Assembly (NCBI GenBank): GCA_017511715.1
Contig: JAFWJF010000002.1
Coordinates: forward strand, 135,781 to 199,780
Length of the DNA: 64,000 nucleotides
Source: Alphaproteobacteria bacterium
GTDB lineage: Bacteria; Pseudomonadota; Alphaproteobacteria; Rs-D84
Direction of reading: 5' to 3'
Shown: piece after piece, positions 2,433 through 26,795 of the stretch
Layout: the number at the start of each line of letters is the position of its first letter
Numbering within the stretch: the first letter of the stretch is position 1
Program-made: the position numbers and the translations under genes
The notes under the pieces: model-generated
The model's database searches: none
What the model was told of the DNA's origin: nothing
What the model saw: only the letters and a program-made list of their open reading frames with translations

Positions 2433-2562
2433 AAATAAAACCCTTGTTCGTTGTCTGAGTAATGATATTAAGCACAGAATAAAATTGCAAGAAGTTTTTA
2501 TATCCGCTTGCAAGGTTATGTTTTTTTTGATAAAATAATATAAAAATGTGGGAAGGTTTCTT

Positions 2563-4800
2563 ATGAAAATGATAAAGATTTTGCCGGTTTTATTGGTGTT
2601 TCCATTGGTTGTATATGGGGCTTCTCGTACGGATTCAACTGTTCGTGTTGGTGTTGGACGTAATAACCAAGCGGGCGCAAGGATGCCTGCTATTTCTGGG
2701 GCCGTTGTGCAGGCCGCGTTGGAAAAAATTTCTGTTTCAGGTGGGCAAAAGCCCAAGTCAGAAACAAGTTCTGCGACCGTGGTTGCATCTGTGCCTGTGG
2801 CGACAGCATCTTCTGATGCAACTGTTTCGGCACCGGTTGATGCAGAGACTGTATCAGTTGTGGCAAGTGGTGATTGCAGGGATGCTTATCGTGCGTGTAT
2901 GGACAGTTTTTGTTTGTTGGAAGAAAGCCAGGGTGAAAGATGTGCGTGTTCAGATAATATAGAATACGCAAAAGGTAAGATTAAGACAATTCTTGCCATC
3001 CAAGCAGAAGCAGATAAGTTGTATACAGAAGGTGTTGAACGCGAACAATTGGGTGCAAAAGCCCGTTTGGTGTTTGCAGATAATAATACAAGTACAAAGA
3101 TTTCAAGTGTCGATTTTATGGGGTGGTTGTACGGCGATAAAGAAGATGTTGAAGAAAGTGGTGATGTTGGCGAAGATGTTGAATTAGGGGACGATTTGTA
3201 TCAGATGGCGGTTAAATATTGTTCTGCTGAACTGGATTCTTGTGGAAGCAAGGCCGAAATGGAATCTATGTTGTATTCGCGCATGATAGTCCAAGATTGT
3301 AAGAATTATGATTCTTATTTGGCAGACCAAAAACTTAATGCGGAATCTAATAAGCGCACCGCAGAATCTGCGGTTCGTAAAGCGCGTCTTGAAATGTTGG
3401 ATACAACGAACAAATACAATCGTGGTGAATGTTTGTTGGCGTTTCGTTCTTGTGTTGCAGACAAAGGTGGATGTGGTACGAATTTCGAGAATTGCCTTGA
3501 TAAAAAATTGTTGCAACGTCGTTCAAATGCCTGTGAAAATGTGTTAGACCAATGTATGGCAGTGCGTGATTATGTTATTGAAGATTGGACGGCAGAATCA
3601 AAAAGTATCTTGGCAGAGGCTGAAAAATATGCCGACAAAAACGAACGTTTAACATGTCTGGCGCGTGCACAAAACTGTTTGGAAGAGGGGTGCTCTACAT
3701 CAACAAACGCGGAATGTTTGACCAATGTAAATGTTGCGGCTGGAATCTGTCCTGTAATCACAGAATGTGATGCAAAAATTCCTGGTTTTCAGGCTGTTAT
3801 AAATGATAAATTGGGATATTTACAGATTAAGTTTTGTGAAAATGACATAGATAAATGCTTGCAAGATAAATGTGGTGTTGATTTTACAAAGCCTGAATGT
3901 GTTGGTAAACGCCCGTATGAAATAGCAGCACTTTGTCCCCAGGATATGTTCTCGTCTTGTAAGAATGTCGAACAATACGATATAATTGTACAGGCGGCAC
4001 TTTTGCAGATGGATTATCAAATATTGCAAGGTTGTGTGAATTATTTTGGTGAACAGTTAGGCAAAGTTTGTGGGACAGATATGGCGTGTTTACCGATTGA
4101 TGCAACCGTTGAATCTTTGACAGATTTGCCGGATACAGAAGAGGGTTTGCAAAATTTGCGTAGAACAGTCGTTGCGAATTCTGACGCGGCGGTTGAAGAA
4201 TTCTTTGTTCAATTTGAACAGGATAAGACAGTTGCAGCATGTGCTGATATGCAAAGTGCAGAGGTCGCAAAGAAGAGTTCTGTGAAACTTAAAGATAAAG
4301 AACCTTTGGGGGTAAGTGTGTTTAATACTGCTAAATTGTTGGCAAAAATGGCAGCGGAAAATCGCAATTTGCGTGAACTTGATTCTAAGATAGCGGAAAT
4401 TGCACGCGAAAAAGATTTGGAAGAAGCCAAAAAGATTTGTTTAAGTACATATAAGCCAGAAAAACCAAAAGGTTCAACAGATGACGATTCAGACGAAGCG
4501 AAATCTAATTACAGTTATATACGCACCGTGTCGTTTGAACCTGATTTGCGTAACTGTCATGTTTGTCGCAGACAGCAAGTTTGTGAAGAAGGTGGCGAAT
4601 CTGCAGCGACATCTGCATTGAAAGCGGCGGCGGGTGGTTTGTCTGCCGGGGCGGCTTCTGGAACAATGGTCAGTGCTGGATGGGGAACTGCGATTGGTGG
4701 ACTGGTTGGCGGAATCGGTGGCGCAGTGATGGGCGCAATGTCTGGTGGTAAAAAACAGTTCTGTCAAGAAGTTGAATCTTGTGAAGATATAAATATGTAA
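2563..4800 (+). CDS. Cys-rich secreted protein, CMDxFC-signature family, paralog 2
   Basis: GGAAGG RBS 6 nt before ATG 2563 (the ORF-track start 2548 is a GTG). Signal peptide [24 protein letters not shown]-rich linker, then [27 protein letters not shown]. More than 50 Cys. Tail ...[16 protein letters not shown]... followed by the Gly-zipper segment [42 protein letters not shown]. Confidence 0.7.
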
Positions 4801-4819: not shown

Positions 4820-7285
4820 ATGAGAAAAATATTAGGTTTCGGTTTTTTTGCAAGTTTGTTGGTGGCCTTGGTTGGTGTGGTGGATGCCGGTGCCGCAACA
4901 AAAAATACTGTTGTGAAAAAGCAGGCTGCATTACAGGCCGGAACAAAAGTGCGCACCAGATTAGCACCAACTGGTATTTATGATGAGGCTTGTTATAACC
5001 AATATTTTGGTTGTATGGATCAGTTTTGTATCGTTGATAATGAAAATGGTGGTTCGTGTATGTGCAGTGATGATGCCGCAAAATATGACGAACAGTTGGA
5101 AGCAATAAAAAATACTTTGGTGGAAGCAGAACGTATCAGCACAGAAGAGGTTGAAAAGATTCAAGCGGGGGCCAATGCTGATATTATATTTAATGGCGGT
5201 GAACGTATTTATAACGAAGAGGGTAATGTTGTAAAAGTCGGGGAAAAACCGAAAACACAAGTCACACTTTCGTCGTTTTCGTTGTTTGACACAGAGGAAG
5301 AAGATGTTGACGAATGGGTTGATATTGATTTATCTGATAAGGTAGGAAGGTCTTTGTACAATGCTGCGCATCGTTTGTGTGTTGAACAAATGTCAGAATC
5401 TTGCGACAAAGATATGATGATGCTGACCCAGTTGTATTCTCGTCAAATTATTTCTGATTGCAAGGGTTTGGCAAATTCCATTGCGCAAAAGAAACAAGAA
5501 GCGGATAGTATTTTAGCGAAAGCAAAGGCGGCGGTGCGCGGTGCATTGAAAGAAAGTTTTGAAGAAGCCAATAAATATGATCGCGGAACATGCATGGTTG
5601 AATATAAAAAATGTATGCGCAGTGAAGATGCTTGTGGGGCAAATTGGGAAAATTGTGTCTTTACAATTGCCTCTGAAAACATGCAAAACAATGCTGCAGA
5701 AAGCGTTGCCGGAACAAAAGTTGATACGATTAACACATATGATATAACCGCATCGACAATGGAAATATTAGAATCTAAACGTTTTATCTGTGAAAAAGTT
5801 TTAGATAATTGTATGGCGGTTCGTAATTATGTTTGGAATGATTTCTTGCGTGAATCTGCGCCAACAATTCGTTTGGCAGAACAAAATATAGAATCACAAA
5901 AACGTCAATCGTGTTTAAGCGATATTTCAGATTGTATCCAAAAGGCATGTAAAGATGATATCGTTGGCAAAGGCGAAGCAACAATGGATGCATGTCTTGC
6001 CCGTCCAGATATGGCACGTTCGTTCTGCAAAATTCAAATTGATCCATGCGAAAGAATGGAACCTCAAATTTGGGATTATGTAAAATCTAAATTGGCGGCA
6101 ATGCGTGTTGATGTTTGCACCCAGGAAGTTAAAGATTGTATCACGGATGAAAACAGATGCGGCAAAGATTTTATGAATTGTATTGGTATGGATTTCAAAT
6201 ATATTCATGATATGTGCCCACTTGATAAATTAGTGGTCTGCAAACAGGCAAACCCAGATTTCCAAATGTCTGATTTAGATTCTATGTTAATGGGGCTTTA
6301 TTTGAATATTGATAACAAGGCACTTGAAAACTGTGAAAATCTGGCAGAAATGAAAATGGCGGAATTATGTGGGTCAACAACAGATTGTAATGTTTTTGCC
6401 GCAGATGAATATCTGGGGACAAATTCAATCAGGTCCCAAAAAGACGGCAGTATATATCGTGTGACAGGTATGATTTCATTTGGTTCAATAAAGATGGGTA
6501 ATGCCACAGGCAGTGTGAAAGATAACGGCAAAGTTTTGTTGCCTGGTGAAATTGGAGTCAAAGATTATATCAGGGAAGTTAAAAAGAATAATAGAAGTGT
6601 AGAAAATGCCGATGCGATAATATCTTCGATTGAAGAAGAATTGAATAATATCGAAGGAACAATTAACAGGGCAATATCTTTGATAGAATCAGATCAACAA
6701 ATACAATATTGTATCAATGGTCGTGATTTATCTCAAATCAATGGTCAAAAAGCGAGTGCAAGAAATACAACAACGGCAAGATTCCCGAATTTGTTAAACC
6801 AGTATCGTGTGATTATTGGTATGGCTGCATTACGCAAGGCGCAAGATAACTATAACAAAAAAGTAAATGAAGAAATAGCGGAAGCCGCCAGAAATTCTTC
6901 TGTAGATCTTGCACAATATTTGTGTCAGAGAATTGCGGATGCAGGTTCAACATCCAGTAGGGATAACAAAATTATTGATGAAACGCCGTTGACCCCACCA
7001 TATGCGATATCTTATGATGTCGGTTCGGGGCTTAGCACAAAAGATTTGATTGCAAATGGTGCTGGCACTTCGGTAAAGACATCCGGTGTTGGTGGTGGTG
7101 AAACGGGAACTAGTATAAGCACACTTGTTAATGCGTCATTTGACCGCGAAAAAAGAAATTGTCATATTTGCCGTACTATAACAGCGGAAGCGTGTTCGCG
7201 CAAAGGTGGCAGTTGGTTCCGTACACGTGATATTAATTGTAAAACTGATGTTCATGAACCAAATTGTGAAGATGTCAAGATGTAG
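4820..7285 (+). CDS. Cys-rich secreted protein, CMDxFC-signature family, paralog 3
   Basis: Starts 20 nt after the stop of paralog 2, so likely co-transcribed. Signal peptide, then CYNQYFGCMDQFCIVDNENGGSCMCSD. Shares blocks with paralog 2: LYSR.I..DCK, RG.C....C.....CG.N.ENC, CMAVR.YV. C-terminal motif ...KRNCHICRT... Confidence 0.7.
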   Translation: MRKILGFGFFASLLVALVGVVDAGAATKNTVVKKQAALQAGTKVRTRLAPTGIYDEACYNQYFGCMDQFCIVDNENGGSCMCSDDAAKYDEQLEAIKNTLVEAERISTEEVEKIQAGANADIIFNGGERIYNEEGNVVKVGEKPKTQVTLSSFSLFDTEEEDVDEWVDIDLSDKVGRSLYNAAHRLCVEQMSESCDKDMMMLTQLYSRQIISDCKGLANSIAQKKQEADSILAKAKAAVRGALKESFEEANKYDRGTCMVEYKKCMRSEDACGANWENCVFTIASENMQNNAAESVAGTKVDTINTYDITASTMEILESKRFICEKVLDNCMAVRNYVWNDFLRESAPTIRLAEQNIESQKRQSCLSDISDCIQKACKDDIVGKGEATMDACLARPDMARSFCKIQIDPCERMEPQIWDYVKSKLAAMRVDVCTQEVKDCITDENRCGKDFMNCIGMDFKYIHDMCPLDKLVVCKQANPDFQMSDLDSMLMGLYLNIDNKALENCENLAEMKMAELCGSTTDCNVFAADEYLGTNSIRSQKDGSIYRVTGMISFGSIKMGNATGSVKDNGKVLLPGEIGVKDYIREVKKNNRSVENADAIISSIEEELNNIEGTINRAISLIESDQQIQYCINGRDLSQINGQKASARNTTTARFPNLLNQYRVIIGMAALRKAQDNYNKKVNEEIAEAARNSSVDLAQYLCQRIADAGSTSSRDNKIIDETPLTPPYAISYDVGSGLSTKDLIANGAGTSVKTSGVGGGETGTSISTLVNASFDREKRNCHICRTITAEACSRKGGSWFRTRDINCKTDVHEPNCEDVKM

Positions 7286-13346: not shown

Positions 13347-13433
13347 TCGTTGCTTTATAAATATAATCTTGCCTTGACTTCGTAAAAGCAGTAATATTAA
13401 ACAAGAATAAATTTGTATTTAGGAATGGAAAAA

Positions 13434-16400
13434 ATGGCAAGGTTAATTGTAGATGGAAATTGGGCTGCGGCTGATGTTGCATATCGTTGTGTCGATTGTG
13501 CGGCTATTTATCCGATTACCCCAAGTAGTACGATGGGCGAATTGTCTGATGAATGGGCGTTTCAGCATAAAAAAAATATTTGGGGTGTTGTTCCTGAAAT
13601 AATTGAGATGCAATCGGAAGCGGGTGCCGCTGGTGCGTTGCATGGTGCGTTGCAAATGGGGGCGTTGGCGACAACTTTTACTGCATCCCAAGGACTTCTT
13701 TTGATGATTCCAAATATGTATAAAATAGCCGGCGAACAAACCCCATTTGTTATGCATGTTGCCGCGCGTGCGCTGGCAACACATGCGTTGTCTATTTTCG
13801 GTGACCACAGTGATGTGATGGCGGTGCGTAATACCGGGTTCGCGATGCTGTCTTCGCATAATGTTCAGGCGGCACACGATATGGCGGCGATTGCACATGC
13901 GTCAACATTAAAAAGTCGCGTTCCATTTTTACATTTTTTTGATGGATTCAGAACAAGTCATGAAGAATCTGCATTGGAAAGGATAAGTGATGAAGTTTTG
14001 CGAGAAATGTTGCCTGAAAAATTAGTTTTGGAAAATCGCAGGCGCGGTATGTCACCAGACAAGCCAACGATTCGTGGAACTGCGCAAAACCCAGATGTTT
14101 ATTTCCAAGGGCGCGAAGCCGCAAATATGTTGTACGATTCTTTGCCACAAATAGTTGCGGATGAAATGGAAAAATTCGCAAAATTGACCGGACGCAGATA
14201 TGGTGTGGTCGATTATATCGGGGATAAAAATGCCAAGTATGTAATTGTTTCAATGGGTTCAAGTTGCGAAACAATTGCTGAAACCTTGCCGTATTTACCA
14301 CGCGGAGTTGGTATGATATGTGTTCACTTGTTTAACCCTTTTCCGGTTGATGCGTTCTTGAAACTGTTGCCAAATTCGGTGGAACAAATTGCGGTGCTGG
14401 ACAGAACAAAAGAAGCAGGTTCAATCGGAGAACCACTTTACCAAAATGTGCGTAATATTGTTGATATGAAAATAAAAGTTTTCGGTGGGCGTTATGGTTT
14501 GGGGTCTAAAGAATTTAAGCCACGTGATGTGAAAGCCATAGTTGAATATATGATGCGTGGCGAATTACATCATAATTTTACAGTCGGTATAGATGACGAT
14601 TTGACACATTTATCACTTGATATAGATAAAACTTTCACAATTGAAAACAAAGATGTGCAGACTGCGGTACTTTATGGAATTGGCAGCGATGGAACAGTTG
14701 GGGCGGTAAAAAATATTGTGAAAATCGTTGGGGAAAATTCTGAATTGTATCCACAATCTTACGCGGTCTATGATTCTAAAAAATCTGGTGGAATAACACA
14801 ATCACATATTCGTTTTTCGTCCGAACCAATTAAAAGTGAATATTTGGTGGACAGTGCTGATTTTATTTGTGTTTCTAATTTTATGATTGCACAAAGGTTT
14901 GATGTTTTTTCCTCTTTACGTGCAGGCGGTACGGTTATGATAAACACTTCTTTGCCCCCAGAAAAAGCCTTTGCGAATTTGCCGCGTTCCGCACAAGAAC
15001 ACTTGATTCGTATGCGTGCAAATGTATATTTTCTTGATGCAAACGCTGCAGCAAATGAATTGGGCTTAGGCAATCGAATCAATACTTTTATAATGTTAAA
15101 TTTCTTTAATTTAACAAAAGTTATCAATCCGGATACAGCGAAAGATGCGGCGAAAGTTGCAATTGAAAAAACTTACAAAAAGAAAGGTATGGATGTCGTT
15201 CATGCAAATTGGGCGGCGGTGGACAGGGCAGAATCTTATCTGAAAAAATACAAATTGCCATCCGTTGTTTCTGAATCAGCACCAGATTTTATACCTGCAA
15301 TGACAGAAAATACCCCGTCTGAAATCGCGGGGACACTTGGTGAAATGGCGGCAGGGCATGGTGACGATATTCCGGTGTCGCGTTTCAAGGTCGATGGTGT
15401 GTTTGGTGGTGGGCAATATCCTGTCGGAACATCAAAATATGAAAAGCGTGCATTGGCAACACGTGTCGCAGTGTGCGATTTAGATAAATGCATCCAATGT
15501 GGAAAATGTTCGATGCTTTGTCCGCATGGCGCGATTCGTATAAAGGTTATGGGCAAAAACGAAATGCAGGCAGCGCGTGCAAACGGGATAACTGTTGTGC
15601 CGATGAAGACACCTGAATTAGGGGCTGGGTTATTTTATACATTAAATATATCACCATCTGATTGTACTGGATGTGGTTTATGTATGAAAAATTGTCCGGT
15701 GGGCGCACTATCTTTGGTGCCGATGGCGGATGGAATTAAAAACCAAAAAATATTTGATGCCGCATTAAATATCCCGGATATAGATAAACAAAAATTAAAT
15801 CTTAATATTCCAAAGCATGTTGAATTGTTGCCCCATTATTTCGAGTTTCCGGGGGCATGTGCAGGTTGTGGTGAAACGCCGTATGTTCGTTTAATGGCGC
15901 ATTTGTTTGGGGATAAGATGGTTGTTGCAAACGCAACAGGCTGTTCTTCTATTTATGGCGGTAATTTGCCGACAACGCCGTGGTGCAGTGATAAAAATGG
16001 TCGTGGACCGGCATGGTCTAATTCGCTGTTCGAAGATAATGCGGAATATGGTTTGGGGATGCGAATTGCACTGAATCAAAGGCGGTCTGCATTGCGTTCT
16101 GTTTTGTTCGAATTAGGCTTTGATAATGTTGAACAGATGATGAATACGGTCGGAACAGAAAATCAACGCGAAGTACAAAACAGTTTGCGTGTTCAGTTGT
16201 CTGGTATAGAAAATCCGCGTGCGCGTTATGCAGAAGGTCTGATTGATGCGATTGTTGATAAATCTGTATGGATAGTTGGTGGTGATGGTTGGGCATACGA
16301 TATTGGGTATGGTGGTGTCGATCATATTTTACACAGTGGCGAAAATGTAAATATTCTTGTTTTGGATACAGAAGGTTATTCAAATACCGGCGGTCAGCAA

Positions 16401-16931
16401 TCTAAATCTACGCCTTTTGGTGCATCGATGAAATTTGCGATTGGTGGCAAAGAACACGCGAAAAAAGATTTGGGTTTAATTGCCATGATGTCGGGTGCGT
16501 ATGTTGCACAAATTGCAATTGGTGCAAATCAAGCACAGGCTGTGCGCGCATTCCGTGAAGCGGAAGCCTTCAATGGTCCGTCGATTATTTTGGCGTATGC
16601 ACCATGCATTGCGCATGGGTTTGCGTTGCAAAACGGTGTTGAACATCAAATCAATTTAGTGAATACAGGTGCGTGGCCACTTTATAGATTTAATCCGTCA
16701 AATATTGAAAAGGGTCAAAACCCGCTGACCATAGATTCGCATGTTGGGACACCGTTCCCACTGGAAGAATTTATGAAAAGTGAAACTCGATTTGCGCTGG
16801 CGCGGTCAGTTAATCCTAATTTTGATAAATTGGTTGACGAAGCCAAGGCAAATAATTTATATAAAACAGAGCTAAAACAACATATTGCAAATTTTGTTGT
16901 GAATAAAAACAAAGACAACGGTGAAGGATAA
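13434..16931 (+). CDS. nifJ: pyruvate:ferredoxin (flavodoxin) oxidoreductase, single-polypeptide PFOR
   Basis: About 1165 aa. N-terminus ...DGNWAAADVAYRCVDCAAIYPITPSS..., two 4Fe-4S ferredoxin motifs (CIQCGKCSMLCPHG; CTGCGLCMKNCPVG), and a TPP-binding region GGDGWAYDIGYGG. AGGA RBS 9 nt before ATG 13434. Confidence 0.85.
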   Translation: MARLIVDGNWAAADVAYRCVDCAAIYPITPSSTMGELSDEWAFQHKKNIWGVVPEIIEMQSEAGAAGALHGALQMGALATTFTASQGLLLMIPNMYKIAGEQTPFVMHVAARALATHALSIFGDHSDVMAVRNTGFAMLSSHNVQAAHDMAAIAHASTLKSRVPFLHFFDGFRTSHEESALERISDEVLREMLPEKLVLENRRRGMSPDKPTIRGTAQNPDVYFQGREAANMLYDSLPQIVADEMEKFAKLTGRRYGVVDYIGDKNAKYVIVSMGSSCETIAETLPYLPRGVGMICVHLFNPFPVDAFLKLLPNSVEQIAVLDRTKEAGSIGEPLYQNVRNIVDMKIKVFGGRYGLGSKEFKPRDVKAIVEYMMRGELHHNFTVGIDDDLTHLSLDIDKTFTIENKDVQTAVLYGIGSDGTVGAVKNIVKIVGENSELYPQSYAVYDSKKSGGITQSHIRFSSEPIKSEYLVDSADFICVSNFMIAQRFDVFSSLRAGGTVMINTSLPPEKAFANLPRSAQEHLIRMRANVYFLDANAAANELGLGNRINTFIMLNFFNLTKVINPDTAKDAAKVAIEKTYKKKGMDVVHANWAAVDRAESYLKKYKLPSVVSESAPDFIPAMTENTPSEIAGTLGEMAAGHGDDIPVSRFKVDGVFGGGQYPVGTSKYEKRALATRVAVCDLDKCIQCGKCSMLCPHGAIRIKVMGKNEMQAARANGITVVPMKTPELGAGLFYTLNISPSDCTGCGLCMKNCPVGALSLVPMADGIKNQKIFDAALNIPDIDKQKLNLNIPKHVELLPHYFEFPGACAGCGETPYVRLMAHLFGDKMVVANATGCSSIYGGNLPTTPWCSDKNGRGPAWSNSLFEDNAEYGLGMRIALNQRRSALRSVLFELGFDNVEQMMNTVGTENQREVQNSLRVQLSGIENPRARYAEGLIDAIVDKSVWIVGGDGWAYDIGYGGVDHILHSGENVNILVLDTEGYSNTGGQQSKSTPFGASMKFAIGGKEHAKKDLGLIAMMSGAYVAQIAIGANQAQAVRAFREAEAFNGPSIILAYAPCIAHGFALQNGVEHQINLVNTGAWPLYRFNPSNIEKGQNPLTIDSHVGTPFPLEEFMKSETRFALARSVNPNFDKLVDEAKANNLYKTELKQHIANFVVNKNKDNGEG

Positions 16932-21378: not shown

Positions 21379-21483
21379 CTCTATAATCCCTATTTAATTT
21401 TTTTGCCGCAACATGCTAGATTTTTTTTATAAAAATGTAAACAAGTTTTTATTAAAAAATAAAAGGAAATATTTCTTGTGTCA

Positions 21484-21549
21484 TTATACCCATGCAACAA
21501 AAATTAAAATACCCAAATGGGTGTTTGAATTTTTGGTTGGGGTACACGG
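21484..21549. repeat. 66-bp direct repeat copy A (duplicate of tRNA-Gln 3' end plus downstream terminator region)
   Basis: ttatacccaTgcaacaaaaattaaaaTacccAAaTgggtgtttgaatttttggttggggtacacgg. About 90% identical to 21715..21781. Confidence 0.8.
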
Positions 21550-21714
21550 TGCCTTGATAAACAATAAATAAAATCAAAAAAATCTTGTGAACTTTGATTT
21601 TTTAAGATTTTTTTAATTGTTTATCTGCGTACTCGCTTGCGCGGCAATCGTGACGATTTTGGTGCGTTGCACTTCCAAAATCTACTGCTTGTCGAACTTG
21701 CGGTTCTTGTCTCG

Positions 21715-21781
21715 TTATACCCAAGCAACAAAAATTAAAACACCCGCAAGGGGTGTTTGAATTTTTGGTTGGGGTACACGG
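21715..21781. repeat. 66-bp direct repeat copy B, overlapping the genuine 3' end of tRNA-Gln
   Basis: See copy A. Includes the acceptor 3' half, CCA and the tRNA terminator hairpin. Confidence 0.8.
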
Positions 21782-21839
21782 ACTCGAACCGCGATATACA
21801 GAGTCAGAGTCTGCTGTTCTACCATTAAACTATACCCCA
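21766..21839 (-). tRNA. tRNA-Gln (anticodon CUG)
   Basis: Rev-comp TGGGGTATAGTTTAATGGTAGAACAGCAGACTCTGACTCTGTATATCGCGGTTCGAGTCCGTGTACCCCAACCA. U1:A72 acceptor pair, anticodon loop CUCUGAC, T-loop GGTTCGAGTCC, encoded CCA. Confidence 0.8.
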
Positions 21840-21942
21840 ATATGCGCATGTATTATATACATTTTATTTCTTTTTTCAAATAAATAATTTCTATTAAATT
21901 TGGGAATAAAATCAGAGTGTTTTATTAAATGTGTGTTTGACA

Positions 21943-21971
21943 ATAATGTGTTTATGCTTTAACATCCTTTG
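21943..21971 (+). promoter_or_regulatory. sigma70-type promoter (TTGACA-N17-TAACAT) for the autotransporter gene
   Basis: TTGACAataatgtgtttatgcttTAACAT, with an AAAGGAGAG RBS before ATG 21997. Confidence 0.5.
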
Positions 21972-21996
21972 TGAGATAAGCAAAGGAGAGCACATC

Positions 21997-24900
21997 ATGA
22001 AATTATCACGAACTGCATTGAAAGAATTAACCGCCGCGTATCGCGCCGTTTTGCGCCATGGTATTTTGTGTAACGCGATTGCATTGGGCTTGGTCGCCGT
22101 ACCAGCAATGGCAGAGCGTCTTGCCATTGAAGGTGGAAATCCCATAACAGAAACAGATAAGGTGTATTCTAATAATTCTGGTCAAACGTTTGGTGGCGGA
22201 ATTGATAATTACGGCGGTAATGTGACCGAAATAAATGTGACAATTCAAGGTAATGCTGCGAACCGTGGTGGTGGTGTTAATAATGATGGTGTTGCAATAT
22301 TTAATGGTGGCTTGATTGGTGGCACAACAGCAGGACTTGGTAATCAAGGCAGTGGCGGTGGTGCTATAGCGAACACGGGTACATTAACAATAAATGGTAC
22401 CACGATACAAAATAATGTTGCCACAAATTATGGTGGTGGCATATATAATTCTTTGAATGCTTCTGGTACTTCGGCGGCGATGGTGTCTGTTAGCAACGCC
22501 ACGTTGAAAGGTAATTCTGCCGGTCAGTTTGGTGGGGCTATATATTCTCAGGGTACAAAAGATATTGTTACTGGGGCTTTGAATATCACAACATCGAATT
22601 TCTTTAACAATTCTGCGGCAAATACAAAAGCCGGCGGTGCGATATACTTGCTTGACAGTGGTAATGTGACAATCAAGGGGGCTAAGTTTGGTGGATATGA
22701 TGAAACAGACCCGGAAAATCCGATATCGTTGGGTAATACAGCAGGCAAGGGGGGCGCCGTTTATATCGGGGGTGTAAATGCCCCAACACATGGCGAAGCT
22801 ACGGTTACTATTACCAAAGATGAATCAAATAACAAGACAATCTTTGATCATAATGTTGCCAATGGCGCAGGTGCAGAAGGATATGGTGGGGCGCTAGTCC
22901 ATAATGGATATAAAACATTTTTAGATTTAAGCAATGCAGAATTCACAAACAATAGCGCGACAAATCAAGCTGGCGCATTGTTGATTAGTGTTACCGCGGG
23001 CACGTTGCGGGCTGATGGTTTAGCAGCAGGAATAAATAATGTTTTGTTTGCAAATAATACGTCTGCGGGTCAGGGCGGTGCCATGTGGAATGGTGCTGTG
23101 GCAATGATTACCAATACAGAATTCAACAATAATTCAACCACAGGCAATGGCGAAGGTGGTGGTGCGGTCGATTTGGGTGCAGTATCAAAAACAGCATTTG
23201 ATAATGTAACATTTACAAGTAATACAGCTGCATCATCTGGTGGTGCAATCGCAACACGCAATTTTAGTTCAGGACAAAATGCCAATGCAAAATTGGATAT
23301 TTATAGTACGACATTCAAGGGTAATTCTGCGGCAATGAACGGTGGTGCAATTTATAATAATTTCTATAACAGTATCGGACATACCGGTTCGGTTTATGTA
23401 AGCGGGGCAACATTTGGTGGTACTGGCACGGGCGAAGGCAACAGTGCTGCAAATGGTGGGGCGATTTATAACAATGCAGACGGAACGCAAACTGGTAATA
23501 TGTACATCACTAATTCGACATTTACCGGCAATTTCGCAGTGGTTCCTGATACATATACTGGTGCGACTTATAAGAAAGAAGGCGTTGGTGGTGCAATTGC
23601 TTCGTCAGGCAGTTTGACAATCAATGCTTCAACATTTACTGGTAATACAGCGCGTACAACAGGTTCTGGGTGGGGACTTGGTGGGGCGCTTTCAACCGTT
23701 ACAGTTGATGGCTTTGCCACAGACATGACCATTATTGGTTCAACGTTTACCGGTAACAGTGCAGATGTTGGTGGTGCCGTTTATGGCATGCTTAAAGCAA
23801 CAAATCAACATGGTTTAAGCACTATAACGATTTCTGGTTCTACATTTGAAGGCAACAGTGCGCAGGCTGGTTCTGCAATAGCAAACTTTGACATAATGTC
23901 AGTTTCGGATACCACATTTTCAGGTAATACAACATTTAATATCGATGATGGTGGTACGGTGTTCTTGGGGTCTGAATCTATTACATCATTTACCGGTGGC
24001 GATTTTACTGATAATGAATCAAACACTGTTGGTGGCGCAATCGCAACACGTAGCATAAATAACGATAACTCTTATGCAAAGTTAGATATTGTTGACACAA
24101 CATTCAAGGGTAATTCGGCTGGCACAAATGGTGGCGCAATTGATAACAATTTCTATGACAGTGTCGGGCATGCTGGTTCTGTTTATGTAAGCGGTGCAAC
24201 ATTTGGTGGTACTGGTACAGGCGAAGGTAACAGTGCTGCAAATGGTGGCGCGATTTACAATCATGCAAACGCGACCCGAACGGGTAGTATGTATTTAACA
24301 GGTGTCAATTTCTTTGGCAATACTGCGACAACTGCTGGTGGTGCCATATATAATGAAGGCGTTATAACTTTGGCGGCGGATAATACATTTAAGAATATTA
24401 AAGCAGGTGGTGTTGCAAACGATATTTATAATGATGGGACGTTGAATATCGCATCTGGAACGACAACGTTGGATGGCGGTGTTACTGGTAATGGAACGTT
24501 GAATATTGCCAGTGGCGCAACATTGAATATCGGAAGTGCAACTGTTTCACAGGGAACCATCAATTTGGGCGGAACTTTAATTGCTGATTTAGTGAGTGGC
24601 GCAGACCCAATCTTTACGGCAACGACATTTGAAGGGACTGGTAATTTAAGTTTGGCTATTGAAAAGGAAGGAACTTATAATTTGTTTGGTAATGCTGTGT
24701 TTGCAAATGCACAACAGCAAATAACCAGCACGTTTTATGATTTAGATTGGACAACAAATGATGGCAAAACCGTTATAGCAACCAAGAAATCTGCTGATAA
24801 AATTGCAGAAGAAACTGGTTTAACAACAGAATCTGCTGTGGCTGTTTCGCATATCGTGGATGCCGGCTCATCAGATACAGGAACAAAACAGATAAAGGAA

Positions 24901-25914
24901 TTGTCTGTGGCTGTTCAGGAAAAATTAGCGTCTGGAAATACTGCTGCGATTGAACAAGCAACCAAGGCGGTGCATCCAGAAAAAGAAGCGGTCGTACAAT
25001 CTGTTTCTGCATCTGTTCAACATGCGGTTGTTAATTTGGCGGCAAATCGTATGTCAATGCCAAGAACAAGACGTGTTATGCCAGCGCATAATTATTATGG
25101 CAACGTTTATGGGCGCAATGGCGGTGATGTGAATTTTACTTCTGGCGGTATTTGGGCGCAAGGTTTGTTTAATAAATCTAGGCAGCATGATGCATTCAAT
25201 GGTTATACGCGTGGAATCGCGTTTGGATTGGATGGGACAATCAACAGGCATTGGACAATTGGTGCGGGGTATTCGTATGCTCATTCTGATATAGATGGAA
25301 CTGCGCGTAATACTGAAATTGATTCTAATACATTGTTCTTGTACGGTCAGTATAAACCTGCACAATGGTATGTGAATGCAATCGCGAATTATACAATGTC
25401 TGATTATTCTGAAATTGGAACGATTATTGATGATAAAACGATATTTGCAGACTATAAAGTTAATTCGTTTGGTGGCGCGTTGGCAACAGGATATGATTTC
25501 AGAAATGGCATAACCCCAGAACTTGGGTTGCGCTATATACATGTCAGTGCTGATGATTACGCAAATTCGTATGGTGTAAAAACACATATGGATGATAATG
25601 ATTTCTTGACAGGGGTTATCGGCGCAAAGTACGCATTTAATGTGGATGTGTCCAGACACACAAAAATCATGCCACAACTTAATGCGGGCTTTAAGTATGA
25701 TTTGTTGTCTGATAAACAAATTGCCACAGTTGCGATGCCGGGGATAAATGCTTATACAATCGAAGGGAATCGGTTGAACCGTATCGGAGGCGAATTTGGT
25801 ATCGGGTTAGGTATGCAGTATCGTACTTTGGAAATGTCTGTTAATTATGACATCGATGTCCGTGAAGATTATACTTCCCAGACAGGTATGTTGAAATTCA
25901 GATATAATTTCTAA
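21997..25914 (+). CDS. Pmp-like autotransporter (polymorphic-membrane-protein-type passenger with GGA[IV]/FxxN repeats, C-terminal beta-barrel)
   Basis: Extended signal peptide MKLSRTALKELTAAYRAVLRHGILCNAIALGLVAVPAMA. More than 20 GGAIY/GGAIA motifs and FTGN/FKGN/FEGN/FSGN motifs. C-terminal ~280 aa has alternating hydrophobic residues and ends ...KFRYNF. Confidence 0.8.
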   Translation: MKLSRTALKELTAAYRAVLRHGILCNAIALGLVAVPAMAERLAIEGGNPITETDKVYSNNSGQTFGGGIDNYGGNVTEINVTIQGNAANRGGGVNNDGVAIFNGGLIGGTTAGLGNQGSGGGAIANTGTLTINGTTIQNNVATNYGGGIYNSLNASGTSAAMVSVSNATLKGNSAGQFGGAIYSQGTKDIVTGALNITTSNFFNNSAANTKAGGAIYLLDSGNVTIKGAKFGGYDETDPENPISLGNTAGKGGAVYIGGVNAPTHGEATVTITKDESNNKTIFDHNVANGAGAEGYGGALVHNGYKTFLDLSNAEFTNNSATNQAGALLISVTAGTLRADGLAAGINNVLFANNTSAGQGGAMWNGAVAMITNTEFNNNSTTGNGEGGGAVDLGAVSKTAFDNVTFTSNTAASSGGAIATRNFSSGQNANAKLDIYSTTFKGNSAAMNGGAIYNNFYNSIGHTGSVYVSGATFGGTGTGEGNSAANGGAIYNNADGTQTGNMYITNSTFTGNFAVVPDTYTGATYKKEGVGGAIASSGSLTINASTFTGNTARTTGSGWGLGGALSTVTVDGFATDMTIIGSTFTGNSADVGGAVYGMLKATNQHGLSTITISGSTFEGNSAQAGSAIANFDIMSVSDTTFSGNTTFNIDDGGTVFLGSESITSFTGGDFTDNESNTVGGAIATRSINNDNSYAKLDIVDTTFKGNSAGTNGGAIDNNFYDSVGHAGSVYVSGATFGGTGTGEGNSAANGGAIYNHANATRTGSMYLTGVNFFGNTATTAGGAIYNEGVITLAADNTFKNIKAGGVANDIYNDGTLNIASGTTTLDGGVTGNGTLNIASGATLNIGSATVSQGTINLGGTLIADLVSGADPIFTATTFEGTGNLSLAIEKEGTYNLFGNAVFANAQQQITSTFYDLDWTTNDGKTVIATKKSADKIAEETGLTTESAVAVSHIVDAGSSDTGTKQIKELSVAVQEKLASGNTAAIEQATKAVHPEKEAVVQSVSASVQHAVVNLAANRMSMPRTRRVMPAHNYYGNVYGRNGGDVNFTSGGIWAQGLFNKSRQHDAFNGYTRGIAFGLDGTINRHWTIGAGYSYAHSDIDGTARNTEIDSNTLFLYGQYKPAQWYVNAIANYTMSDYSEIGTIIDDKTIFADYKVNSFGGALATGYDFRNGITPELGLRYIHVSADDYANSYGVKTHMDDNDFLTGVIGAKYAFNVDVSRHTKIMPQLNAGFKYDLLSDKQIATVAMPGINAYTIEGNRLNRIGGEFGIGLGMQYRTLEMSVNYDIDVREDYTSQTGMLKFRYNF
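23241..23520 (+). repeat. internal ~280-bp direct repeat, copy 1, inside the autotransporter passenger
   Basis: Encodes ATRNFSSGQNANAKLDIYSTTFKGNSAAMNGGAIYNNFYNSIGHTGSVYVSGATFGGTGTGEGNSAANGGAIYNNADGTQTGNMYIT. Near-identical at the nucleotide level to 24034..24313. Confidence 0.75.
24034..24313 (+). repeat. internal ~280-bp direct repeat, copy 2
   Basis: Encodes ATRSINNDNSYAKLDIVDTTFKGNSAGTNGGAIDNNFYDSVGHAGSVYVSGATFGGTGTGEGNSAANGGAIYNHANATRTGSMYLT. Confidence 0.75.
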
Positions 25915-25921
25915 GATACAA

Positions 25922-25956
25922 AGAAAGGGTCAAGTGTTTTGACCCTTTTATTTTTT
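25922..25956. terminator. bidirectional rho-independent terminator
   Basis: AAAGGGTCAAgtgttTTGACCCTTT plus T-run. The convergent gene ends at 25948. Confidence 0.65.
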
Positions 25957-26736
25957 GTGTGTGTGTTTCCTGTAATCAGTAGAATTAAGACCGCTTTGTA
26001 TTTTCGGTAAATTAAATTCTGCGTCCATTTCACGTAATTGTTTTACCATAATTTTTTCAATTTCTGCACGTTTTTTCTCAAAATCTTCGCCACGCAATTT
26101 AGAATCAATATATATTGGTTCGCCAATACGACAAGATATTGTACCAAATAATTTTGGGACCATAAATTTATCCCATCTGTCCATGTACATTGGTCGTGAA
26201 CATGAAAAGCATACCGGAACAATAGGCGCGCCCGTCATGCGTGCAAAATATAATGCGCCGTCTTGTAAGTGCAGAGATGGTCCGGACGGTCCATCAACCG
26301 GAACACACATAGAAACATTTTCTTGCTTCATCACACGAACGCCTTCACGTAAAACCGCTACCGCGCCATCTGATGTAGAACCATAGATTGCACGCAAACC
26401 AAAAAGCCGTTGCATGCGTGCCATCATACGTCCGTCTTTGTGTCGCGATGCAACACAGTAAGATTTTATTCGTGCAGACCGTATCACAGGCGACAACATG
26501 GCGCATCTGCCATGGAAAAAGACAAAAACCACGGGGCTTTTGCGATAGTTTTTTAATGATTCTGTATTTGTGAATTTGTGTCGCGATGTCAGAAATATGA
26601 ACCATGTCACACCCGCAAACAAGGCAACAACGACCCATTGTATCGCAGAATTATGCAAAATGGGCTCCCAAAAACTTTTCCAAATTTTTCGTAAAAACTT
26701 GTACATAATGCTTGATTTTATCAGGAAAAAAGCCAT
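25948..26736 (-). CDS. lysophospholipid acyltransferase family protein (DUF374-like)
   Basis: N-terminal TM segment, then FFHGRCAMLSP...ASRHKDG...VPVDGPSGP, resembling DUF374/LPLAT conserved blocks. Confidence 0.5.
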   Translation of the reverse strand: MAFFLIKSSIMYKFLRKIWKSFWEPILHNSAIQWVVVALFAGVTWFIFLTSRHKFTNTESLKNYRKSPVVFVFFHGRCAMLSPVIRSARIKSYCVASRHKDGRMMARMQRLFGLRAIYGSTSDGAVAVLREGVRVMKQENVSMCVPVDGPSGPSLHLQDGALYFARMTGAPIVPVCFSCSRPMYMDRWDKFMVPKLFGTISCRIGEPIYIDSKLRGEDFEKKRAEIEKIMVKQLREMDAEFNLPKIQSGLNSTDYRKHTHKK

Positions 26737-26761
26737 TTTGCAAATTTTAAGACTGTGACCA

Positions 26762-26795
26762 AAAAATAACCGCCCAAATGGGCGGAGTTTTTTTA
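26762..26795. terminator. rho-independent terminator downstream of groEL
   Basis: ACCGCCCaaatGGGCGGag plus T7. Confidence 0.65.

Follow-up and report, generated by a model that had tools for sequence, protein, structure and literature searches.

Does a direct repeat inside a surface-protein gene act as a switch of protein length, or is it the trace of an old duplication? The question is raised by a gene at positions 21997..25914 (forward strand) of a 64,000-nucleotide (nt) stretch of contig JAFWJF010000002.1 (assembly GCA_017511715.1), which is called here the window. The DNA comes from an uncultured alphaproteobacterium of the gut or rumen, a relative of Candidatus Enterousia in the order Rs-D84. 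The gene codes for a 1305-amino-acid (aa) autotransporter of type Va; its exposed part, the passenger, is built of the repeats known from polymorphic membrane proteins (Pmps) of Chlamydia, and two segments of the passenger region repeat each other directly and in frame. A sequence-only reading of the window described these segments as nearly identical and proposed that RecA-mediated deletion or duplication between them changes passenger length, as a means of size or antigenic variation.

We consider another explanation, taken as a whole, to be quite probable: a type Va Pmp-repeat autotransporter that carries an old duplication under purifying selection and whose variation arises by divergence and mosaic exchange of segments. 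The interest of the locus rests on a mosaic, fast-evolving passenger at a conserved position in a little-known lineage, not on the internal repeat.

Age and stability of the internal repeat

The repeat that the sequence-only reading had placed near 23241..23520 and 24034..24313 is real and stands far above background, but its core proved to be 23285..23504 (copy A, aa 432–497) and 24074..24293 (copy B, aa 695–760), both on the forward strand, as delimited by direct-repeat search and alignment and, for copy A, by an identity profile. Over these 220 nt, the best gap-free pair, the copies are 82% identical; over the 280-nt segments given earlier, identity is 76% (215 of 284 columns), and ∼90% is reached in the best 30-nt windows only. 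The longest exact matches are 20, 20, 17 and 14 nt; the copies are not nearly identical. The offset is 789 nt, or 263 codons, rather than the ∼265 aa (793 nt by the coordinates) proposed before. Weaker similarity begins at 23238/24030, in a rung with the sequence GGAIATR, and includes one 3-nt indel. At the protein level the cores are 83% identical, and ∼70 aa of upstream flank retain ∼40% similarity. In the AlphaFold2 model described below the cores occupy model residues 323–388 (A) and 586–651 (B), with the same strand pattern, 5-3-3 then 4-3-3, and a predicted local distance difference test score (pLDDT) of 85–98 (85–95 in the copy A feature); each core makes two consecutive rungs of the predicted beta-helix.

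Could the similarity simply reflect structural constraints common to all Pmp rungs? All rungs share the GGA and FxxN motifs, and the background of protein identity between rungs, by fragment-versus-whole BLAST, is 30–37%. The core pair is far above that level, however, and at any other in-frame offset within the gene nucleotide identity over 220 nt is at most 47%; the similarity of A and B extends to third codon positions as well. Convergence in place of a specific duplication is therefore next to impossible. An assembly artefact has as little to recommend it. The source is a metagenome-assembled genome (MAG), which calls for general caution, and nothing more specific was found; the copies differ at 18% of sites, so that an assembler would neither collapse nor create them. 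The window product is identical to NCBI MBR3147983.1 (‘MAG: autotransporter domain-containing protein [Alphaproteobacteria bacterium]’), the Logan assembly of SRR12529293 (locus L001) differs by 1 nt over the whole gene, and the ENA assembly has the same protein with a longer start call (1322 aa). The same 1305-aa product with the same repeat, with 1 nt of difference in total, is thus found in three assemblies, and the repeat recurs in diverged form in JGI contig Ga0310786_10018096. The indexed database copy differs from the window protein by one residue.

This JGI contig, referred to as L086, was found in JGI metagenomes by a DNA scan for a 32-mer specific to copy A. Its ortholog of the gene is colinear (80% aa identity) and has the same neighbouring genes; groEL is 86.3% identical at the nucleotide level. 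Both cores are present in L086, spaced by 261 aa versus 263 aa in the window; therefore the two-copy architecture predates the split of the two lineages and has been stably inherited, contrary to what one would expect of a size switch that recombines often. Copy B is the colinear ortholog of L086 aa 713–778 and of aa 527–591 in homolog P0004. By the Nei–Gojobori method the two cores in the window are separated by 0.62–0.78 synonymous (dS) and 0.07–0.10 nonsynonymous (dN) substitutions per site (dN/dS ∼0.12). The dS of groEL is 0.93 against locus L002 and 0.83 against L086; since the A/B value is close to these, the copies have been separated for a time comparable to the species divergence in the group. 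Judged from the sequences, what keeps A and B similar is protein-level constraint, i.e. purifying selection.

Several points favour the copies as a working substrate for RecA-dependent unequal recombination that would switch passenger length by 263 aa. The two copies lie in direct orientation and in frame, with identity well above background, and many family members are ∼1040–1060 aa long, the size expected after deletion. Moreover, ∼20 of roughly 119 homolog clusters have an internal repeat of their own (at least 50% aa identity, offsets ∼230–300 aa), and one relative, P0096 (locus L087, MAG GCA_030525725.1), has a 300-nt in-frame repeat with 97% identity and a 708-nt offset (L087 388–687 versus 1096–1395), which is either a young duplication or possibly an assembly problem on a 4.3-kb contig. 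These cases argue for segmental duplication that recurs on evolutionary time scales. On the other hand, 20 nt of exact match do not exceed the minimal efficient processing segment established for E. coli, and divergence of the kind seen between A and B (18%, dS 0.6–0.8) strongly depresses homologous recombination. L086, with a groEL only 86% identical, has kept both copies at essentially this spacing, and no length variant was seen in any assembly or database relative: a search of 5.8 billion protein clusters, with 659 homologs, returned neither the 1042-aa deletion product nor a triplication product, and the next best homolog outside the 1305/1322-aa cluster is 54% identical. On this evidence we think it very improbable that the repeat is a size switch, and the proposal of RecA-mediated variation is not sustained.

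Of the features of a repeat-mediated contingency locus, neither near-identical repeats nor a slippage tract was found in the gene, nor were length variants among what are near-clonal consensus assemblies. Phase variation through simple repeats was ruled out, as homopolymers in the gene do not exceed 6 nt and tandem repeats are absent. The core as a widespread mobile ‘cassette’ was ruled out as well: at 60% aa identity or more it was found only in this species (two copies), in L086 (two) and in the P0004 species (one).

Ongoing gene conversion between the copies (concerted evolution) is a subtler alternative, in which conversion mainly maintains their similarity and also yields variants of the two-rung core. 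Identity between A and B within either genome (82–83%) does not exceed that of A with A between genomes (83%), while B with B is at 92% (dS 0.22). Among the variable sites of the four core sequences (A and B in the window and in L086), 14 have the pattern expected from orthology and one the concerted pattern. These counts, along with the high dS between copies, speak against conversion as the main force. The sites unique to copy A point the other way: there are 15 in the window, 14 of them within 23306–23385, and 15 in L086, nine of them within 23402–23499 (Fisher p = 0.005); each of these sites is alike in the remaining three sequences, and a number of the changes are synonymous. Upstream of the core, the flank of copy A is closest to P0002, P0003 and P0007 (63–65% aa), while the core itself is closest to copy B and P0004 (80–83%). 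In comparison with L086, copy A (84.5%) is an island of divergence between tracts of ∼88% and 99%, though a neighbouring block is at 70%; copy A does not stand alone in this respect, since the divergence of other mosaic blocks is as high or higher. The pattern fits short patches converted from B to A, in sub-tracts that differ between the two lineages, but it is suggestive only: the putative tracts are broken up by orthology sites, and copy A is no more divergent than some other blocks of the gene. As the principal cause of the similarity, concerted evolution appears unlikely, though a good deal less so than the size switch.

The reading we prefer, then, is that a two-rung core of ∼66 aa was duplicated within the gene long ago. 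At synonymous sites the copies have diverged almost as orthologs of different species do, with the protein sequence held by purifying selection; at most, short patches may occasionally be converted between the copies, and the repeat does not at present serve RecA for frequent deletion or duplication.

Mosaic divergence of the passenger at a conserved locus

If not from the repeat, where does the variation come from? Nucleotide identity to L086 differs from block to block along the gene. The N-terminal part (21997–22750) is 69% identical; it is followed by a tract at 22790..23090 (forward strand) that is 98.7% identical (4 mismatches in 301) and appears to be a recently exchanged segment. Identity is then 88% in 23091–23270, 84.5% in copy A (23285–23504) and 70% in 23505–23575; a second tract at 23576..23860 (forward strand) reaches 98.9% (3 mismatches in 285), and 153 nt of it match without interruption. 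Further downstream, identity is 89% in 23861–24073, 92% in copy B (24074–24293), 96% in 24294–24400 and 75% in the C-terminal part (24401–25914). The genes used for comparison, groEL and DUF374, are at 86.3% and 79.8%, respectively.

Exact runs shared with L086 reach 153, 123 and 116 nt in the passenger and at most 49 nt in groEL. The proportion of synonymous differences (pS) is 0–0.13 in the near-identical tracts and 0.5–0.65 in the background. The long exact runs together with low pS indicate that passenger segments were recently passed between lineages by homologous exchange, or acquired from a shared donor pool. Among syntenic orthologs, aa identity is 92–96% for GroEL, 60–77% for the barrel, 43–53% for the passenger (aa 40–1000) and 41–54% for the whole protein (best alignment); different segments of the passenger match different orthologs best. 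No paralog or silent-cassette donor was found in the 64-kb window at either the nucleotide or the protein level. As far as sequence comparison can tell, the variation seen at the locus is fast divergence of the passenger combined with mosaic homologous exchange of ∼100–300-nt segments between related lineages.

The position of the gene is conserved. The order tRNA-Gln(CTG), autotransporter, DUF374, (GNAT), groEL-groES, in which the bracketed acetyltransferase gene may be lacking, was found in at least 29 loci; the MAGs concerned are those of Ca. Enterousia and of other uncultured Alphaproteobacteria, and most derive from the gut of ruminants, horses or other hosts. The homologs with a source name are from MAGs of uncultured Alphaproteobacteria or Proteobacteria, and family passengers range from ∼750 to 1750 aa. 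A scan of GTDB representatives did not recover the species itself; the nearest groEL genes there are at most 87–89% identical to that of the window at the nucleotide level.

The anchor of the passenger varies in at least one homolog. In P0007 (ENA, 1675 aa) the extended signal peptide is the same and the passenger aligns to 64% of the query with 60% identity, but a YadA-type trimeric anchor (PF03895) stands in place of PF03797; Pmp-type passengers therefore appear to have been exchanged between type Va and type Vc anchors.

The annotation itself is routine, as the product is already named an ‘autotransporter domain-containing protein’ in NCBI. What deserves attention is that a 3.9-kb gene for a Pmp-type surface protein is retained at a conserved position in a genome of ∼0.9 Mb: genomes of Ca. 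Enterousia (Rs-D84) are below 1 Mb, with very limited metabolism, and Rs-D84 and its reduced genomes are described in PMC12306168. The exposed part evolves much faster than the neighbouring genes and has exchanged segments between lineages very recently. Retention, fast evolution and segment exchange together make the protein a likely key interface of these uncultured gut bacteria with a host or partner, and the locus offers a natural data set for the modular diversification of beta-helix passengers. A more far-reaching possibility, which we put forward tentatively and would not expect to hold in full, is that the locus is the principal hypervariable surface-antigen or adhesin locus of Ca. Enterousia (Rs-D84), in which rung-sized modules of ∼100–300 nt are frequently exchanged across species, and across type Va and type Vc anchors too (as in P0007), while repeats like A and B may serve as landing pads for short-patch conversion, not deletion. 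If true, beta-helices would be diversified here by modular ‘rung-shuffling’, and this in a bacterium whose genome is smaller than 1 Mb.

Some observations weigh against the explanation favoured here. The dS between the cores is computed from ∼46 synonymous sites only. The spatial segregation of the sites unique to copy A suggests that short patches were exchanged between the copies, which then are not recombinationally inert. The three assemblies of the same length are near-clonal and therefore have weak power to reveal rare length variants; short-read assemblies, besides, show the majority structure only. The repeat of P0096/L087 implies that younger duplications, such as the sequence-only reading imagined, do arise in the family. 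Finally, the role of the protein, most likely that of a surface adhesin or surface coat, is assigned by analogy alone; such a role is plausible for a fermentative, probably partner-dependent gut bacterium with a reduced genome (PMC12306168).

Architecture of the protein and its relation to known systems

The descriptive part of the earlier reading was correct, given the motif counts and the matches to PF03797, PF02415 and TIGR01376. The 1305-aa open reading frame (ORF) is intact, with ATG at 21997 and the stop codon ending at 25914, exactly the boundaries given before; the coding sequence (21997..25914, forward strand, stop codon included) is defined by the ORF list, PF03797 and PF02415 matches and the conserved N-termini of the family. 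The start was assigned to ATG 21997, not to an upstream GTG or ATG, because the N-terminus MK(Q/L)S(K/R)T.LKELTAAYRAVLRHGILCNAIALGL...PAMA is near-invariant in many homologs.

A putative extended signal peptide occupies aa 1–39 (MKLSRTALKELTAAYRAVLRHGILCNAIALGLVAVPAMA, then ER; 21997..22113, forward strand). On inspection, this sequence has a basic N-region, a hydrophobic core and an AMA motif followed by E, which suggests the cleavage site; it is near-invariant across many homologs. The Pfam scan of the protein (E ≤ 1) found no signal-peptide family such as ESPR. Leaders in the family are of three alternative types; the extended leader of 39–40 aa, ‘MKQSKTTLKELTAAYRAVLRHGILCNAIALGL..PAMA’, is near-invariant even beside a passenger that cannot be aligned.

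The passenger (aa 40 to ∼930; 22114..24786, forward strand) is predicted to be a right-handed Pmp-repeat beta-helix of roughly 20 rungs or more with GGA[ILV] and FxxN motifs. It has 16 GGA[ILV] motifs (14 of them GGA[IV]), four GGG[IV] and 15 FxxN; composition-matched shuffles give 0.5 GGA[ILV] and 4.1 FxxN. The Chlam_PMP family (PF02415) matches in eight stretches (E 4.5e-19, 66.9 bits versus a cut-off of 20.6) and NCBIfam TIGR01376 (POMP_repeat) in six, bearing out the claim of more than 20 GGA[IV]/FxxN motifs and a Pmp-type passenger. The autotransporter beta-domain (PF03797), whose absence would have spoken against an autotransporter, is found at aa 1052–1285 (E 2.3e-35, 123 bits versus a cut-off of 26, profile positions 1–255 of 255). 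Beyond these two families the Pfam scan returned one spurious Ras match, and the NCBIfam YfaL/EhaC match is weak and partial (22.9 bits versus a cut-off of 1459). The barrel translocator (aa 1047–1305; 25135..25911, forward strand; PF03797 and Foldseek) ends in ...MLKFRYNF, as had been reported for its last residues, FRYNF; the final residue is aromatic, as in a beta-signal, and the ending is kept in the family.

An AlphaFold2 model was built for aa 110–1305 from a 60-sequence family alignment (mean pLDDT 84, predicted template modelling score, pTM, 0.74). It shows a long regular beta-helix up to ∼aa 930 with a pattern of short strands (pLDDT mostly 85–98), then five helices at aa 933–1019 (model residues 824–910), a stretch with pLDDT below 50 (model residues 911–936) and a beta-barrel at aa 1047–1304 (pLDDT ∼80–88). 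The barrel thus measures ∼258 aa, not the ∼280 aa estimated earlier. Foldseek against the PDB returned the translocators of EspP, EstA, AaaA, NalP, Hbp, BrkA and AIDA-I (E 1e-11 to 2e-7, template modelling score normalized to the target, TM, at most 0.82); the top matches are all type Va translocators. The barrel dominated this whole-model search, which therefore gave no independent structural match for the passenger. A sequence search of the PDB detected no chain for the protein. The predicted alpha-helical linker region (24793..25053, forward strand; helices from DSSP of the model) is followed by a low-confidence basic loop at aa 1020–1045. This helical region of ∼85 aa is conserved in the family consensus; classical autotransporters have a shorter linker made of one helix.

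Assignment to the classical type Va autotransporters with a Pmp-type beta-helix and a C-terminal barrel is supported by these data. Proteins of type Va are exported by the Sec system, their barrel is inserted into the outer membrane with the aid of the beta-barrel assembly machinery (BAM), and the passenger is translocated and folds from C- to N-terminus. By this family pathway, the ∼39-aa extended signal peptide would direct Sec export, the ∼258-aa C-terminal barrel would be inserted into the outer membrane by BAM, and the ∼890-aa passenger would be threaded outward and fold in the C-to-N direction into a Pmp-type beta-helix. Each rung would bury one FxxN and one GGA[ILV] motif, with variable loops exposed on one face. 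In chlamydial Pmps FxxN and GGA motifs are buried in each rung and variable loops lie on one exposed face (PMC10715098); this paper and PMC11166332 both describe what the motifs do in the structure.

With chlamydial Pmps such as C. trachomatis PmpD and C. pneumoniae Pmp21 the protein shares the type V architecture and the FxxN/GGA[ILV] rungs (PF02415, TIGR01376). It differs from them in that the Pfam scan (E ≤ 1) found no match to the Pmp middle domain, which we take to be Pfam ChlamPMP_M; the helical linker precedes the barrel instead. Some chlamydial pmp genes phase-vary by a poly-G tract, whereas the gene in the window has none. Chlamydial Pmps are encoded by Chlamydiaceae and mediate adhesion to host cells; here the gene belongs to a gut alphaproteobacterium. 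Since the scan shows no middle domain, a helical linker is predicted and the lineage is alphaproteobacterial, the protein is a Pmp-repeat protein and not a chlamydial Pmp in the strict sense.

The classical type Va proteins EspP, NalP, Hbp, BrkA, AIDA-I and EstA have a barrel on which the predicted one superposes, and the full-length PF03797 and aromatic C-terminal residue are shared with them; in contrast, the protein shows no detectable sequence similarity to PDB chains and its passenger is of the Pmp-repeat type, not of the pertactin, SPATE (serine protease autotransporters of Enterobacteriaceae) or AIDA type. The same paired-motif beta-helix repeat occurs in Pmp-repeat proteins outside Chlamydia (many bacteria, Methanobrevibacter, Trichomonas), which Debrine et al. 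2023 (PMC10715098) reported in more than 100 non-chlamydial species. From these the present subfamily is set apart by its restriction to uncultured gut or rumen Alphaproteobacteria, its conserved position beside tRNA-Gln and groESL, and its own, conserved extended signal peptide.

The mosaic passenger also invites comparison with a wider class. Genes of surface proteins that are mosaic and diversified by recombination are known as a general class in host-associated bacteria. A conserved anchor with conserved flanks and a hypervariable exposed domain are shared with that class, as are near-identical tracts of ∼300 nt in lineages with housekeeping genes ∼86% identical; the gene differs from it in having no silent cassette array or paralog within the 64-kb window.

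Expression signals and gene neighbourhood

A Shine-Dalgarno sequence, AAAGGAGAG (21982..21990, forward strand), was read 6 nt 5′ of ATG 21997. Upstream of it, a consensus scan found a candidate sigma-70-like promoter, TTGACA-17-TAACAT (21937..21965, forward strand), matching the consensus at 10 of 12 positions; the consensus match alone marks it. An invertible promoter was ruled out, as the inverted-repeat search gave a small hairpin (21556–21625) and inverted repeats at chance level. Downstream of the gene, a terminator scan identified a bidirectional intrinsic-terminator-like hairpin (25923..25949; a 12-pair stem then a T-run, on both strands), common to the autotransporter gene and the convergent DUF374 gene.

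The tRNA-Gln(CTG) gene (21766..21839, reverse strand; ARAGORN and Rfam) is the conserved landmark directly upstream of the autotransporter and was found there in all eight loci scanned (L001, L002, L004, L005, L006, L023, L029 and L084). The last 16 nt of the tRNA gene and ∼50 nt of its downstream flank, with a terminator hairpin, recur 232 bp away with ∼84% identity (21483–21549 versus 21715–21781). In related loci L005, L012, L041, L042, L043 and L052 the terminal 16-mer is present two or three times. The flank repeat looks like a recurrent att-like scar or an integration hotspot in the genus.

In L002, L004 and L005 a GNAT acetyltransferase gene separates DUF374 from groEL; this gene is missing from the window (25948–26793 compared). 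Farther away, two adjacent and apparently paralogous cysteine-rich ORFs of 750 and 821 aa (2548–4800 and 4820–7285, forward strand) begin with N-terminal signal-like sequences; neither has a Pfam match. The window also contains a gene for pyruvate:ferredoxin oxidoreductase (13413–16931, forward strand; 1172 aa), which fits the fermentative lifestyle, lacking the tricarboxylic acid cycle and a respiratory chain, reported for Ca. Enterousia (PMC12306168).

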